A stretch of DNA of 64,000 bases from Candidatus Kapaibacterium sp. (lineage in GTDB: Bacteria > Bacteroidota > Ignavibacteria > Kapaibacteriales > UBA2268), in the NCBI GenBank assembly GCA_963664875.1, contig OY761611.1, positions 1,344,001-1,408,000 on the forward strand, written 5' to 3'. The position numbers are program-made. This document shows, in pieces, positions 30,001-36,000 of this stretch (its first letter is position 1; each line of letters opens with the position of its first letter).

Positions 30001-33000
30001 TAAGTCTTTCTCGTTGCAGTTCTCCTTCATGTTTTAGTTCTTCCTCTTTAGTGTTTAGTTTGTCATGAATCTCTGAAACAAAAACCTTAAAAACTTGTGT
30101 CTCTACTTCTACTTCTTGTTTCGCTTTATTGGTTTTTGTTTTTATCTTCAATAATGTGTTTTCTATATCTTCTTTCTTCGAATTCAACAATTCTAATACA
30201 GTATAATTAATATTCTCTTTATTAAAATCGAAATACACCATTTTATCAGATACATCTGAAATATTTGCTTTCAACTCTTCTGAAGATTTTAGTTTTCTTG
30301 TAAGATTTTCTTCAAATTCCTGAATTTCTAATGTGAGTTGTTTACCCGAATCTTTACTCTGAGCATGTTTTATAAAGTTATCCATTTTTACTAATATCTT
30401 TTTTAATTCTAAATCAATATCATTTTTATAGGAAGTGAGAGTTGTTTTTATTTTTTTTACCTCAAGATCTTGCTCTTCTTCTAATTCCTTTAGTAGTTTA
30501 GCTAATACTTCATATTTTGAGAGTACAATGTCTTGGTATTTTTTTACCATTTCACCTTTAAGTGTTAAGATTTCTCCATCCTCATATTTTGAGTAAAAAT
30601 TAAGCCATTCATCATAGTATGCTATTTCGTTTGAATAGGATTCTTGTATTCTGTCAAATATTCTTTTAGCTGTTTTACTTCGGAGTTCGCTCTTTACCTT
30701 ATCATCTTTTAAGACTTCAATTTCACTTGCATAGATATACAAATCTTTTATTTCATAAATCTCATCAATACAATCAGTCAAGAATATCGGATACTTTTTA
30801 TCAAGAGTATAATAAGCCACAAAGTGTTCAGATTTAGGAATTGTTTTTACCGAATTTTTTGCAATCTTACTTAAAATGTTTTTATCAACTACATAATTTT
30901 TCATAGCTGAGTAAATACTTTTAAGTTCACTATTACTTCTTGCTCCAAATGTGTTTTCCTTGTCTGCCTCTAATACGTAAGCTGTACTTCCACTAAATCC
31001 AAGAAGGATATAATCATCTGTATCAAATTCGCTTACGAACCACTCTTCAATAGCAGAAGCTCCATAAATTGATTGACCTTTTGGAAGTGTGGAATCTTGT
31101 TTTATTAGGTAATAAACCCCAGACCCTGCTGCAAATAAACCTGCTGCCCATATTAAGTTTCTAATATCTCTTGCAGAATCAGCAGGGGTTCCATTTTTTG
31201 TTGCAATATCATAATATGCTTGACCTCCGCCAGCAAATGCAGCTAAAGGTACTCCTGTGAATGTCAAATATGACCATAAAGAATAAGACTCGTCTTTACG
31301 GATATTTTCGTAAATATGAAGTCCTCTTGATTTATCAGATGTCCAATCTTCTTGTTTATAAGAAATTGTAGTACATGATTGAAGCAGTACTAAGGTTATT
31401 AGGAATAGAGAAATAATACGAATCATTTCTGCCTCATCGTTAGTTTTATATTTTTGTTTAAAATGGGATTCATATATTAGGTAACTAATCTTTGAGGAGA
31501 TGCAGATATGCCATAAAAAAAAGGATGCCTTATACATATCTACTCAGACAAGCCCCGCAAAAGGCACAACTCATAGATACATATAGACATCCACACGTGT
31601 GGAGTCCTTATAGTATCCTTGGGGGTTGTTTAAAAATTTGCGGTTTTTGTCTGACCCAAAGAATCTAAGATTACTCTTATTTAAAATTTTCTGTTATATG
31701 TTATTTTTCTGATTTTTCTTTCTGATATGCGATTCTCATAAAAATGTTAATAAGTCCTACATAATAGCAATATAAAATATTAGATTCAAATTATCAAATA
31801 TTTTCTTTCATGTAAATAGAAAATATAAAATTTCGTAAATAGTAGGTTAATTACAATCCTGCACTTCATTTTTTTGAGTGCAGGATTGTTGTTGTTTGAG
31901 GGGAAATTTCAATCTATATCACTATTTTATATATCTAAAATTGATTTAATTTACTTTCCCTAAAACCAAATTTCTAAACTCTTGATTTCCATATCTTCTA
32001 CCATTACCCTCAATTATTATTATTTCGAAATCAGAATGGCGATGCTCCCTCTCTTGTGAAACAACAAGGTACCAATCTGCTAATCTGCTGAGTGTAGTTT
32101 GCTCCGCTTCATTTAGACCGCTGAAGAAATCTGTAGATGTTATTCTCCAACAATCAGTCTTTAAATTTTTGCGAATATGAATGTAGCCTTTCATTATCAG
32201 TGATTTTACAATTTCTTCTCTTGCAAATCCTTCAAATCGAATTTTTTCGTCATACTTCTTATAAGTCTTTCGGATGTTCATCAAGGTCAAACCAAAAAGA
32301 TTGGGATTATCAATTACAGTATCTATGTGTTTTGCTCTCACTTCAATAACAGCAGACTCTTCAGTTATATTCTTAGGTAGAATCCAATATGCGTTTGCCA
32401 TATCTCTCTCCATTATTTCAAAGACAATCCCGGTAATTGTGTGCTAATAAACTTATACCACTTTCCATCATAAGCAAAAGCAGGTCTGTTGTAATCATAA
32501 AACGTCTTTTCTCTTGTAACATAAAGCTGATATAAAGGCATCCTATTTATCAGCACTTGTTTATAAACCTTTTCCTTCAGCAATTGCTGTCTGCTGAAAT
32601 CAATAGCTTCTTCTTCAGTCAAAGGATGAGGAAATCTTATTGTTCTTATCGCCCATCGGAAGACTAAATAACTTTCTTTATAAGTAGTTTCAGTCTTTAG
32701 GATTTCATCATAATACTCTTGATCTAAGGAAATTGTATATTCAATATCTTCCTTACTTAGTCCAAGAAGTTCAAGATAAGTCTTTGGAATTGGAATCAAT
32801 AAATTGTCCCATCCCTCTCTTCTTCCAATAAACTTATTTAGTTTTGTCCAACCCATTTTTTCGGCAAGGTATCTCGAGCCTTGCGGATTTTTGTAGAAAT
32901 CTTTGAATTCTGCTGAGCGAGATTGAATTAGGCAACGCGTGTTGTAATATCTGTAATACTTTTTCTCTGTCCGAGTTGGAATTGAGAATCCGGGTATTGG

Positions 33001-36000
33001 TTTTGCTGATGGCATGGAAAATACTCCTATGTTAAAATGGAGTACCAAGAAGTGGTTTTTGCTTATAAAAGCCGTATCACTTTACCACCGTGGCATTTTT
33101 GCTCGGTTGGTACACTTATGTGTTCTTGATACAAAAAATCGTTTATAATTGATTTACGTAAGAATATTGATTTTGTTATTGAAAGAACATTTCCACTTAA
33201 AATTCTAAATGACTATGATGCAAGATGTATTACAACAAATAAGATTGCAACATTCAACCAATAAGTGCAACTGATGTTAAAATATAAACTATTTTCGAAC
33301 ATCTTATAATCTATTGACTGAAAGAATAATATCACAAAGTTAGAAAGTATCGCTTAAAATAATATTTGGAATTTTTATGTGTGATAAAAGACTTACGCAA
33401 TTAATATTGTACTCGAGAGACGTTCTACCGAATCAATACCCACCATCATATATTGGCAAGATGGTCAAATGTGTAGAAGATTTGCTAATACCTTTTGAAG
33501 ACACTGATAAAATAAATATAATAGTCGATGCTATATATACAATAGATGCAAAATTAAAACCGATGGATTACTTGACGGAAATTTTTGTCGAACAAGAAGA
33601 AGGCCCATATAAAAGAATCGATGAATTTGCTTATGTAAAAGCAAAATTGTTTTTATTGGAAAAACTTAAAAAGATAAAAGGTGAAAAAAACACATTTTGT
33701 AATTTTGAAAAATACGAACCGTTTTCTGAATACCCTGAGGAATTTAGATTTTCAGAAGATTTGATAAAAAATGAAATTGAATTTTTTTCTGAAGAAGAGA
33801 CTCTTGAATATTTAACAGATAAAATAAAGACACTATGGGGAATTGTAAATTTCCATCCAAATATAGATGAGACAGTTTTTGATGAGACTTTGAAAAAAAC
33901 ATATCATTTTAACTCACACACAAAATGCTCTGACATCGTTGCAAGATATTCGAAACTTCAAGAATCTGCTGCTTCAACGCTTCTGTATTTAGAGAAAGAG
34001 TATGCCTTAAGTAATAATCAAATAAAATTTCAAACCAATAATACACTTTCTAATACACGACAAGAAATAAGAAACTCTGCTTATTATACAATAGTAGAAG
34101 ATAAAATAAAATGGGAGAAACCTTTAAACCTGCTTTCAGTGTATTTATGCGAAATCGCAAAAGAAATACCTGAAATGAAAGGACTCCAAGGTAAAGCTGT
34201 TATAACATACTTTGTTGAACGATCCAAATTAATCCTAACTGAAAAAAATATTTCGTCACTAAAGACATACGCAAAAGATTACTTGAATAATACACATGAT
34301 TTCAACGATGAGCTTGATAACAAAGTAAAAGTTAACTTAAAAAATTGTCTACTATCATAATCTCAGAGGGAATTTTTATTCCCTCTCATTTCTTTTTACT
34401 CTGCAAAACGACGCGTATATCAGTCCGAAAAAAAAAATTTAATCGGTAATATCTATTCCCTTACAACTCATATACTTTGCCTCATATTTGAAAACAATTT
34501 TCAAGGAGGCTCATATGAGAGCTATATCTAAAAAGATGATATCATCAGTGCAAGATGTGGATGCTGTTGATATATTTCTGCATTTAACAAATCCTAATAA
34601 CAAATGGATTTTCAATTCTTTACCCAATCTTTTAGTACAGAGTAGGAGGCAGCATGGAAAATAAATCTTTCAGTAGTAATAGGACTAGTTGTCCTGAATG
34701 CGGAGCAAAAAGGGCATTTGCAGAATATGATGATGGCTCAGGTGGATATTGTCATTCATGTGGTAAAACTGTTATGTATAACTCGACTAAAAAGCAAGGT
34801 AAGCAAATGAAAAAACAACAAGAGAAGAGTCAATTGTTACAAACTATTACTCTTGAGCAATTTAATGAGTTAAGATCATGTGATGATTCAAATTTTAACG
34901 AGTATTTTGGTGAGCTATTTGGTGATGCTTTTAACAAACATTGTAATGATAATTATTTTTTAAGAGCTGATGATTATGGTGCAACAATCTTTACTTTTAT
35001 AGATTCTCAGGGATTTATTAGAAATTTAAAAAGCATGGCATACAAACAAGATGGTCATAGAGATAAGGTGGGATTTGTTCTAAAAATCAAGGAGAAAGAG
35101 ACTACTATACCTGTATTTTATGGATATCGATATGCAAAAAAAGGAAAATACGATATGATTAAATCCACTTCTGTGAAGAAACATTATTCACAGTGCCTGT
35201 TTGGTGAATACTACCTCAATTCACACAACTACATGATTGTAGGAGATCGAACCTATAAGTATGATGACAAGACCCCAGTTATATTATTAGAATCAGAAAA
35301 ATCTGTCTTAATATCTTCATTTCATTATCCATCTGTCATCTTCCTTGCAACAGGTGGAACGAATGGGTTAACAGAAGAAAAAGCGGAAATATTGAAAGAT
35401 AGAATTGTTTATATCATGTTTGACAACGAAGAAAAAGCTCAACTGAGAGCTGAAAAGGCAAAGATTGTTTTGACAGGAATTGCAAAGTCGGTTGATATAA
35501 TTGATATTTTCAAAAATTACAAGGTTGAAGAAGGTTATGATTTAGCTGATATTTTAGAACAACAAGCAATTTTAAGAGGAGAACAGAAAGATGACAAATA
35601 ATTTAAAACCGATAAGAGAATTCAATCTTATTCAAGAGTTGAATAACTATAATCACAAAAAGATTAAACAAAACACAATGAATTTTCGATTGGAACAAGC
35701 TGCTAATCAACCTCAGATGGAAGAATTATTTGGTTCTTATTTACAACGTGGAGAAATTTCAATAATCGCAGGTAACACAGGAGATGGTAAATCCACTTTA
35801 GCAGTTCAAATTGCTGACAGAATCACAAGGCAAAAAGGAATATGGAATGAAGTGAATACGCAAAAATATCCAATAATATACTATGATTTTGAGATGTCAG
35901 ACCAATCATTGCTAAAAAGATATCAATCTTATACTTTCGAATCTAACTTTTATTGTCCTGACGTTAGTGAAATTATTAAGAATTCAAATGGCGTATTTTC

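Follow-up and report, generated by a model that had tools for sequence, protein, structure and literature searches.

A SAM-I/IV riboswitch stands before two genes without known family, here called A and B, in a 64,000-nucleotide stretch of a Candidatus Kapaibacterium sp. genome (contig OY761611.1, positions 1,344,001 to 1,408,000; hereafter the window). Comparison of related loci suggests that A and B are not metabolic genes and form part of a gene set of restriction and defence islands. We give an even chance to the reading that the A/B cassette is a module of conflict islands that is made when the cell runs out of SAM.

The riboswitch and its targets

A covariance-model search matches RF01725 at window positions 33046-33137 of the reverse strand with 61.7 bits (E 9e-8, against a gathering score of 41.1), in agreement with the survey's finding of an aptamer of that score before a ~200-aa gene. 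Judged by sequence and structure, this is a genuine SAM-I/IV riboswitch. The strands of its P1 helix lie at 33128-33132 (5') and 33074-33078 (3'), and the Rfam consensus core is kept in all five RF01725 copies of the genome, which score 69.3, 68.1, 61.7, 61.7 and 53 bits. Across 14 related leaders, 93.5% of the cells of the aptamer helices are paired and 8 pairs are changed on both sides. The observed pairing values were reached in 0 of 500 shuffles, and slid controls of the alignment gave 26-50% pairing. P1 is 100%, P2 98% (4 of 4 pairs covarying) and P3 99% paired, while P4 stands at 72.5%, a low figure that is partly an effect of the alignment.

The expression platform (33016..33051, reverse strand) consists of an anti-P1 segment, an anti-SD and an SD, followed by the AUG at 33013-33015. 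The anti-P1 segment UUCUUGGUAC (33042-33051) overlaps the anti-SD UACUCC (33039-33044), which is complementary to the SD GGAGUA (33022-33027) of the same leader. The P1 5' strand is paired with the anti-P1 segment in the ligand-free minimum-free-energy fold, and RNAalifold chooses the same helix on the 14 leaders, in which the sequestor helix is 90.5% paired. The overlap of anti-P1 and anti-SD is kept in 14 of 14 aligned leaders, with the same design in L077; the common platform hiding GGAG that had been proposed is shared by the A-gene leaders of all five lineages described below. From sequence, folding and conservation, the platform can be read as a translational switch of the SAM-OFF kind. 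When SAM is bound, P1 would form and UACUCC would pair with GGAGUA, so that the ribosome-binding site is hidden; in its absence, the anti-P1 segment would pair with the P1 5' strand and J1/2 (GUAUCAAGAA), freeing that site. By this logic, A and B would be made only at low SAM.

A palindrome read from the sequence, TTACGTAA (33154..33161, reverse strand), lies 17 nt upstream of the aptamer match and may be a promoter or operator element; a related ACGTA box is found upstream of most aptamers of this type. A sigma-70 pattern scan of the locus gave nothing above shuffled background. At the other end of the operon, a 12-bp inverted repeat, also read from the sequence (31863..31889, reverse strand; 57 nt after the gene B stop) and not reported by a terminator pattern scan, is probably a terminator hairpin that lacks a U tract.

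Three of the five aptamers of the genome precede A-B pairs and two precede wHTH-RtcB-PrfH operons. The earlier count of three in five before A therefore stands, but the three are not independent, as two of them belong to one 99% identical 10-kb duplication. Window positions 22961-33184, a segment ending 47 nt upstream of the aptamer, are 99.1% identical across 10.2 kb to C1:2120596-2110373, and positions 13509-16859 are 95.6% identical to C1:2131791-2128462. These two pairs of matching segments point to a single segmental duplication of ~20 kb with two aptamers per copy, which leaves three independent aptamer loci in the genome. The second window aptamer (13544..13638, forward strand; RF01725, same platform type) is followed by the wHTH gene (13660-13947), RtcB (14203-15105, split in the window copy), a 216-aa gene without assigned family and a PrfH-like RF-1 domain gene (15773-16396).

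A methionine or SAM gene follows none of the five aptamers, and metK is near none of them. RF00162, RF00521 and RF01724 have no match in the genome (the controls of part of these searches also matched nowhere). The common leader also heads B alone (G055, G110, G113 and G116) and a pair made up of a gene without known family and an AAA_15 ATPase. Elsewhere the class responds to SAM: in a phylum sample of 151 genomes, the RF01725 matches outside the Kapabacteria family stand before NhaC-type transporters (2), and a further one, below the cut-off, stands before metX. RF01725 appears in Weinberg et al. 2010 as the 'SAM-I-IV-variant' (PMC2864571). The elements described here share the aptamer architecture and conserved core of that class, and differ from its members elsewhere in that they head non-metabolic restriction-island genes (A, B, RtcB-PrfH and the ATPase pair), with no methionine gene of the window's genome carrying one.

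Genes A and B and their distribution

Gene A (32413..33015, reverse strand; 200-aa ORF at 32416-33015) starts 30 nt after the aptamer end, and its paralogues in the genome are 99.5% and 66.5% identical, the latter being the 66% relationship already described. The reported absence of a family model is confirmed for Pfam and PADLOC: A has no Pfam family at E<=1, PADLOC-DB 2.0 has no family that matches A, B or their paralogues, and a Pfam search of 90 A-family members found no match, with no HTH family at E<=0.01. At E<=1e-3 the family takes in 146 representative clusters, and 39 of these also pass E<=1e-10.

The survey's confident AlphaFold model was reproduced with a 90-row alignment (pLDDT 92.3, pTM 0.85; a 5-row alignment gave only 36.7). 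Its N-terminal part is an XRE-like domain of five helices (about residues 20-106) and its C-terminal part an alpha/beta domain (109-190); the most conserved helix bears K61, R66 and W69. The XRE structure 5woq superposes with Z 4.9 (rmsd 3.1, 75 residues), which is below the level separating relatives from chance, and about ten further XRE chains match residues 15-105 weakly, at Z 3.3-4.4; the best structural match, at Z 6.9, is an unrelated flagellar protein. Residues 109-175 match the T3 SAM lyase (8bb1_E/7ock_L) weakly (Z 3.5, rmsd 3.1, 61-64 residues), and Foldseek returns weak matches of A to phage 'SAM hydrolase' (E 0.11). A is probably a nucleic-acid-binding, XRE-like two-domain protein. 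It resembles XRE regulators and antitoxins (HipB, ClgR, lambda-type repressors) in the weak superposition of its N-terminal domain (Z 3.3-4.9 over about 70-85 residues) and in coming first in small operons, translationally coupled to the next gene. It differs from them in that no HTH_3/XRE family model matches A or the 90 members, and in a C-terminal domain without a convincing relative.

Gene B (31946..32413, reverse strand; 155-aa ORF at 31949-32413, or 151 aa from the second Met) shares 1 nt with the stop codon of A (TAATG). It carries a conserved N-terminal domain of ~95 aa with the motif AYWIxP...HI...FGL...EK.R.EG.AR, and matches nothing in Pfam or PADLOC. B had been described as a shared partner of A, which is true of the window's genus (g1) but not of g51, g39 and g31, where A occurs without B and other genes follow it; among aptamer-led loci, B comes directly after A only in g1. 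There are also A-B pairs without a detectable aptamer, in G088 (a fragment) and G029 (weak A-like), and at least 10 genomes have B but no A. At twelve B loci a search for the aptamer gave no match at E<=0.1, upstream DNA being missing in some. A type II toxin-antitoxin pair was considered and rejected, since A and B each occur alone; neither matches a toxin family in Pfam or PADLOC.

Of 130 genomes of the Kapabacteria family, 9 encode A and 21 encode B. All 12 full-length A genes in these genomes lie in aptamer-led operons, 11 directly behind the aptamer and one as the second gene of a tandem pair, and they represent five lineages with a mutual identity of only about 30-35%. Membership of the A family in the SAM-riboswitch regulon, as the survey had it, is supported by this distribution within one Kapabacteria family. 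The further claim that A is always preceded by the riboswitch holds for the same family (12 of 12) but fails outside it, where none of the 8 testable distant homologues has an aptamer. RF01725 does not match at E<=1 before the A homologue of G472 or at 8 metagenome loci, one of which has only 95 nt of upstream DNA.

SAM lyases and restriction islands in the neighbourhood

It had been stated that nothing ties the family to SAM, and comparison with other loci overturns this. In G087, a gap of 8 nt separates a lyase-like gene from the B gene that follows it. The gene order in G072 is lyase-like, C, B, B-like, where family C ties this locus to the aptamer-A loci found in G109 and G114. In G020, a 760-aa protein combines B-like domains (two by profile, a third by eye) with a lyase-like domain (hhalign probability 91%, E 9e-7). 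On metagenome contig L044, a PF23780 S-AdoMet_lyase gene (39.2 bits, cut-off 28) stands between two A homologues, and the A and lyase genes overlap; this single contig is the lyase link for A, and the stronger links concern B.

The lyase-like genes beside or fused to B, or between two A genes, measure about 205-233 aa. Phage SAM lyases (T3 SAMase, Svi3-3; Pfam PF23780) have been described (PMC7877911; bioRxiv 10.1101/2023.02.27.530186), and the lyase-like profile of the B/A loci matches the T3 enzyme (7ock/8bb1) at E 3.4e-5. A and B, in contrast, are not homologues of these enzymes by sequence, the C-terminal domain of A matching the T3 fold only at the Z of 3.5 given above. That A and B are themselves SAM lyases finds no support in their sequences, with hhalign probabilities of <=1% against the lyase-like protein or profile, and neither they nor their relatives match PF23780. 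Nineteen phage records contain relatives of the long-form lyase-like protein; at three phage loci, no A or B was found within 3 kb of the lyase-like gene. PF23780 has no match in the window's genome (G000), which differs in this from the phage lyase loci, so that the lyase link is one by comparison only. Lyase-like loci are without riboswitch and riboswitch loci without a lyase-like gene, in a tally that covers 4 loci with a lyase and about 15 with a riboswitch, many of which are related to one another.

The A/B loci adjoin Type I, McrBC, GmrSD and MmeI restriction genes, WYL regulators and integrases. Neighbours of the A/B/aptamer loci include HsdR, McrBC and UvrD-PDDEXK, and further GmrSD, MmeI, an AAA_15 ATPase, NERD/UvrD, an integrase and WCX/WYL regulators. 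A heads an operon with a PD-(D/E)XK protein in L045 and L046, and WYL/WCX regulators directly adjoin riboswitch-less A homologues in L043, L038 and L089. No component of the cassette matches a PADLOC model, so the word defence refers to the neighbours only. A primase/helicase is found next to a gene A locus, an integrase near a B-only locus, and FGase and NT5C genes near the G076 locus.

A candidate module for the low-SAM state

A, B, family C and the long-form SAM-lyase-like proteins would constitute a small gene set, occurring in varying combinations in the restriction/defence islands and mobile elements of Kapabacteria. Whether the arrangement has a riboswitch or a lyase-like gene, A and B would be produced in SAM-depleted cells, and since low SAM is common to both arrangements we read the cassette as a conflict module of that state. 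The riboswitch would report SAM depletion, brought about by a phage or element SAM lyase acting against SAM-dependent restriction or by starvation. Depletion would switch on A (XRE-like) and B (a lyase-associated domain protein), which might counter the lyase, shield the cell against its own restriction enzymes during a failure of methylation, or halt growth. The natural trigger may be methionine starvation rather than phage attack. A more far-reaching version, which we consider somewhat unlikely, makes the riboswitch an innate-immune sensor: a fall of SAM due to phage or plasmid lyases, which disarm SAM-dependent restriction and BREX-type systems, would be read directly by this RNA and so unlock a second layer of genes located in these islands (A, B, the RtcB-PrfH ribosome-repair pair and the AAA_15 ATPase module), and lyase-carrying mobile elements would have captured A and B for the same low-SAM state.

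Gene A might instead simply encode a transcription regulator of the XRE type that acts on genes of the island or mobile element as a repressor or antitoxin would, with the riboswitch only coupling its level to nutritional state (e.g. for a life-cycle decision) and the lyase neighbours as coincidental cargo. The more than ten XRE-type HTH structures that match residues 15-105 (Z 3.3-4.9) are consistent with this, as are K61, R66 and W69 in the most conserved helix, the varied operons headed by A (L045, L046), the adjoining WYL regulators (L043, L038), the primase/helicase next door and the integrase near the B-only locus. We nevertheless judge it unlikely, given that none of the 90 members is matched by any HTH Pfam model and that the same leader on B, RtcB-PrfH and the ATPase pair would be left unexplained, as would the B-lyase fusion. 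It is quite unlikely, in our estimation, that A and/or B are direct inhibitors of SAM lyases, acting as antitoxin beside a lyase gene and, under the riboswitch, being induced on SAM depletion to neutralise an incoming phage lyase and restore SAM-dependent restriction. An OFF switch would suit an inhibitor of SAM destruction, and the tight coupling (the 8-nt gap in G087, the overlap in L044), an XRE-like domain such as many antitoxins have and the SAM-dependent restriction genes nearby argue in the same direction; against this, a covalent fusion of B-like and lyase-like domains would be unusual for an inhibitor, and A and B also occur alone or with unrelated partners (the PD-(D/E)XK protein, a WYL regulator).

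Two further explanations keep closer to metabolism. Were A and B enzymes or carriers of an unrecognised salvage of SAM, MTA or homoserine lactone, the riboswitch would be an ordinary metabolic feedback device, and a lyase neighbourhood together with a SAM riboswitch would fit a pathway around SAM cleavage products, as would the FGase and NT5C genes near the G076 locus. The sporadic spread of both genes (A in 9 and B in 21 of the 130 family genomes), their multiple copies inside duplicated or mobile DNA, the lack of any enzyme-like family or fold match and the restriction genes next to them make this very unlikely. We also regard as very unlikely the idea that the aptamers are SAM-I/IV look-alikes with a changed ligand and for this reason have no methionine gene behind them. 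This would account for the 0 of 5 in the genome and for the position of the family's above-cut-off matches, none of which precedes a classical SAM gene, but the Rfam consensus core is kept in every copy (53-69 bits) and changes are confined to helices, where they are compensated.

Riboswitches are textbook metabolic feedback devices, and defence islands are gated by WYL/WCX regulators of the BrxR/CapW type. The A/B cassette resembles the latter in placing a sensor of a small molecule or stress ahead of defence genes, and differs in that this sensor is a predicted SAM-reading RNA acting on translation rather than a protein acting on transcription. To judge from the results listed, full-text literature searches returned no link between SAM riboswitches and SAM lyases or between riboswitches and RtcB/PrfH, and no paper on riboswitches, defence islands and SAM together. 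If the reading as a low-SAM conflict module is true, a whole clade would use a SAM riboswitch only for accessory restriction-island genes, a different use of the device; as the switched genes are linked with SAM-destroying enzymes through their neighbourhood and through fusion, the switch would take the metabolite as a signal that the cell is under attack or in distress. Such a reading would provide a first functional handle on two unannotated families, A (146 clusters) and B, would suggest that long-form SAM lyases have a role in bacteria, and predicts that lowering SAM switches on A and B.

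The SAM-I/IV leader and its duplicated loci

The genome, one complete contig (C1) of 3.83 Mb and 36% GC, contains five matches to the SAM-I/IV aptamer model RF01725 (69.3, 68.1, 61.7, 61.7 and 53 bits). The aptamer at window 33046-33137 on the minus strand (61.7 bits) is followed after 30 nt by gene A, an ORF of 200 aa (32416-33015, minus strand), and then by gene B, an ORF of 155 aa (31949-32413, minus strand) that shares one base with the stop codon of A. Three copies of A are identified by tblastn (100, 99.5 and 66.5% identity), each with an aptamer ahead of it. The survey's finding that three of the five aptamers precede this family is therefore correct as a count; however, the copies are not independent, as window 22961-33184 shares 99.1% identity with C1:2120596-2110373 along 10.2 kb. 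A further stretch that includes the window's other aptamer (13509-16859) is 95.6% identical to C1:2131791-2128462. One segmental duplication of ~20 kb thus bears an aptamer-led operon at either end, which leaves three independent loci for the five aptamers.

The duplication (window 13509-33184 against C1:2110373-2131791) is inverted. The operons at its two ends are convergent, their aptamers form an imperfect inverted repeat (79% over ~100 nt), and its middle has diverged, unlike the ends. Elsewhere in the window, a 1.2-kb repeat occurs twice within the region 44600-50500 (at 45234-46440 and 46965-48171); it is 99.6-100% identical to at least five other genome sites and resembles an insertion sequence. 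The region also includes an internally repetitive long coding stretch (48158-50488). A tmRNA gene is found at 51759-52123 on the minus strand (199 bits).

The conserved core of the Rfam consensus is kept in all five aptamer copies, and one common design is seen downstream of the aptamer across leaders. In the leader of A (all elements on the minus strand), the 5' strand of P1 together with J1/2, GUAUCAAGAA (33123-33132), is complementary to an anti-P1 segment, UUCUUGGUAC (33042-33051). The 3' part of this segment is an anti-SD, UACUCC (33039-33044), complementing the SD GGAGUA (33022-33027), which lies 6 nt ahead of the AUG. Because of these complementary segments, P1 and sequestering of the ribosome-binding site could coexist, and each would exclude the anti-P1 helix. 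That helix is present in the ligand-free minimum-free-energy fold (z -3.15) and again in an RNAalifold prediction on 14 leaders. The SAM-bound structure, counted as P1-P4 plus the sequestor across 14 leaders, has 93.5% of its cells paired and both-side changes in eight pairs; none of 500 shuffles matched the observed values, and slid controls were only 26-50% paired. By helix, pairing is 100% for P1, 98% for P2 (four of four pairs covary), 99% for P3, 90.5% for the sequestor helix and 72.5% for P4, the last being partly an alignment problem. From this anatomy we infer a translational OFF switch, with the protein predicted to be made at low SAM.

An ACGTA box (TTACGTAA, TGACGTATTA or TAACGTAATA) is conserved ~17-30 nt 5' of the aptamers, whichever gene lies downstream; it is located at 33154-33161 in the window, and most related aptamers have one too. 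Its role may be that of a promoter or operator. Scanning for promoter and terminator patterns gave nothing above shuffled background. On a congener contig (CALNXW010000031.1, positions 5252-5837 of locus L039), group II intron domains (RF02001 at 159 bits, RF01998 and RF00029) stop ~40 nt short of the aptamer.

Genes behind the aptamer and the reach of the linkage

None of the genome's five aptamers has a methionine or SAM gene behind it, and metK, at 3.647 Mb, is distant from all of them. The two that do not precede A head a small winged-helix gene, RtcB, an unknown gene of 216 aa and a PrfH-like gene with an RF-1 domain. These operons lie at window 13544-16396 (plus strand), where RtcB is broken into ORFs of 79 and 300 aa, and at C1:2128462-2131791, where it is intact (370 aa). 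In E. coli, RtcB and PrfH are known as a pair for ribosome rescue/repair; none of the papers retrieved by full-text searches ties a riboswitch to them. SAM-I (RF00162) has no match in the genome, and neither do SAM-II (RF00521) and SAM-Chlorobi (RF01724), the latter two being weak negatives with search controls that were silent too.

Across 130 genomes of the taxonomic family, RF01725 (E<=0.001) is found in at least 15, ten of them above the cut-off. This is a lower bound, since Infernal, run with the strict filters that apply to sets of more than 40 genomes, overlooked matches of 54 bits; beyond that survey, 54-bit aptamers stand directly ahead of B-family genes in three genomes (G110, G113 and G116). 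Homologues of A follow the aptamer in G093, G094 (two), G109, G114, G107, G076 (two, in tandem) and G054, where the aptamer scores 38.8 bits, under the cut-off. G094 has another aptamer before a winged-helix gene and RtcB, and that of G055 has a B-like gene alone behind it. In G019, an aptamer with the same platform (the sequence 3' of the aptamer) heads an unknown gene of 245 aa, an AAA_15/AAA_21/DUF3696 ATPase and a gene of 249 aa (L057, G019:C20, 5518-8297, minus strand), which looks like a defence-type ATPase module. Genus g52 has sub-cut-off matches of 136-139 nt, probably SAM-I switches of the ordinary kind, before genes that read, by sequence inspection, as a Cys/Met PLP enzyme and probably a homoserine dehydrogenase. 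As a control, 151 genomes sampled from the phylum were searched, and 11 contained matches. Outside the family RF01725 precedes NhaC-type transporters (two cases), unknown genes of 220 aa (two), terminator-type leaders (two) and, in one sub-cut-off match, metX, contexts that fit a SAM-sensing class.

The A profile recovers 146 representative clusters at E<=1e-3 and 39 at E<=1e-10, nearly all of 190-220 aa. Within the taxonomic family there are 13 matches, spread over nine of the 130 genomes. All 12 full-length genes belong to aptamer-led operons (11 directly behind the aptamer, one second in a tandem pair), and the thirteenth match, at the end of a contig, is a fragment. The full-length genes make up five lineages (two paralogues in the window's genus g1, and genera g51, g39 and g31) that are mutually only ~30-35% identical, and the linkage is therefore old. 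On a wider scale, 10 of 254 genomes from the order carry A, as do 3 of 401 sampled from the phylum; an alignment-based search for related loci from A returned congeners only. At E<=1, RF01725 has no match at the sole homologue in another family (G472) or in any of eight metagenome loci with A homologues of the largest sub-clade, one with just 95 nt upstream. The claim that A is always preceded by the riboswitch thus stands for the taxonomic family and is wrong for the protein family as a whole, because the link is absent outside the former.

Proteins A and B

As the survey had claimed, A belongs to no known family: it has no match in Pfam, PHROG or PADLOC, and none of 90 relatives matched Pfam. 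AlphaFold with a 90-row alignment gives a model with pLDDT 92.3 and pTM 0.85 (a 5-row alignment was useless, pLDDT 36.7), in which a five-helix N-terminal domain (~20-106) is predicted to precede a C-terminal domain of beta-hairpin, helix and beta-sheet (109-190). The N-terminal domain weakly matches many XRE-type HTH structures (top 5woq, Z 4.9, rmsd 3.1, 75 residues). The C-terminal domain best matches an unrelated flagellar protein (Z 6.9), then AcrIF9 (Z 5.0), with T3 SAM lyase at Z 3.5; all these scores are at a level deemed common by the structure-search tool. Searching PDB sequences with the A profile gave nothing under E 0.39, Foldseek found no match at E<=0.001 in PDB or BFVD, and the ESM Atlas had no usable match for A or B. 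The longer members of the A family (P0135, P0124 and others) have no informative extra domain. That A or B might be a diverged SAM lyase was considered and dropped, as neither has profile similarity to the lyase and a Z of 3.5 is equalled by many unrelated folds.

B, which also has no family match, is rarer than A (nine proteins in a word-indexed search). The part of B that is conserved forms an N-terminal domain ~95 aa long, and longer relatives have an extra Cys-rich C-terminal part. The B profile matches 22 of 254 genomes of the order, 21 of them in this family (14 genera), and no aptamer was found at most of these loci. In G088 (a fragment) and G029 (a weak A-like gene), A and B are paired with no aptamer detected. 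No relative of A was found in viral contigs, and 50,697 phage records searched by tblastn with A and B gave no match.

Restriction-gene neighbours, SAM-lyase-like genes and a proposed low-SAM module

Restriction genes and genes of mobile elements surround the cassettes. HsdR adjoins the window's RtcB-type aptamer, a DUF6371 primase-like gene and an AAA_25/DnaB-like helicase lie beside the A aptamer, and the third locus has McrBC and a UvrD-PD-(D/E)XK protein. Island neighbours in other genomes include GmrSD (G076), MmeI (G054), an integrase (G055) and, in G019, SNF2 and NERD-UvrD helicases with a WCX regulator. WYL/WCX regulators also adjoin the aptamer-less A homologues of L043 and G472 and the weak A-like gene of G029, and in L045 and L046 a PD-(D/E)XK protein of 878 aa starts 34 nt past A. 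No paper was found on riboswitches with defence islands and SAM, Weinberg 2010 being covered by its main text; its supplement on SAM-I/IV gene contexts could contain similar non-metabolic contexts.

Annotating the neighbours of distant homologues revealed a link to SAM lyases. On metagenome contig L044 the gene for a 233-aa protein that matches S-AdoMet_lyase (PF23780, E 8.3e-10, 39.2 bits, cut-off 28) stands between two A homologues, with a 154-aa gene ahead of the first. A lyase-like gene of 221 aa in G087 is followed after 8 nt by a B-family gene (hmmsearch E 1.4e-24), and in G072 a lyase-like gene that may be frameshifted is followed by gene C (209 aa), then by B and a gene resembling B. 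Copies of C are 32% identical (E 6e-34), and in G109 and G114 C also lies just 5' of the loci that combine the aptamer with A. In G020, B precedes a 760-aa protein (L098, G020:C4, 280-2559) with tandem B-like domains, two by profile and a third by eye only, and, at its C-terminus, a domain resembling the lyase (hhalign probability 91.4%, E 9.2e-7); Pfam finds only DUF3293 in it, under the cut-off. Against PDB, the sole significant match of the lyase-like profile is T3 SAM lyase (7ock/8bb1, E 3.4e-5). The lyase-like family has relatives in 19 phage records, and neither A nor B lies within 3 kb of such genes in three phage loci. The window's genome has no lyase gene, and among the loci seen (four with lyase, ~15 partly related ones with riboswitch) the two never occur together. 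A predicted complex of the L044 A homologue with the adjoining lyase-like protein scored 0.05 against a mark of 0.32, which weighs neither way. Full-text searches found no paper joining a SAM riboswitch to a SAM lyase, nor, in the parts of the literature they covered, one joining a SAM lyase to an antitoxin as meant here.

A SAM riboswitch of the OFF type acting in cis would leave A and B present in SAM-depleted cells, and a co-encoded SAM lyase would do the same by an independent arrangement. In the boldest reading, which seems to us rather unlikely, the riboswitch would serve as an immune sensor that detects phage SAM lyases and then switches back-up genes on. Given the two independent arrangements and the island context, the best-supported reading, to which we assign about an even chance, is a conflict module of the low-SAM state, in which A and B are candidates for neutralising the lyase, for shielding the chromosome when methylation breaks down, or for a part in arrest or regulation.
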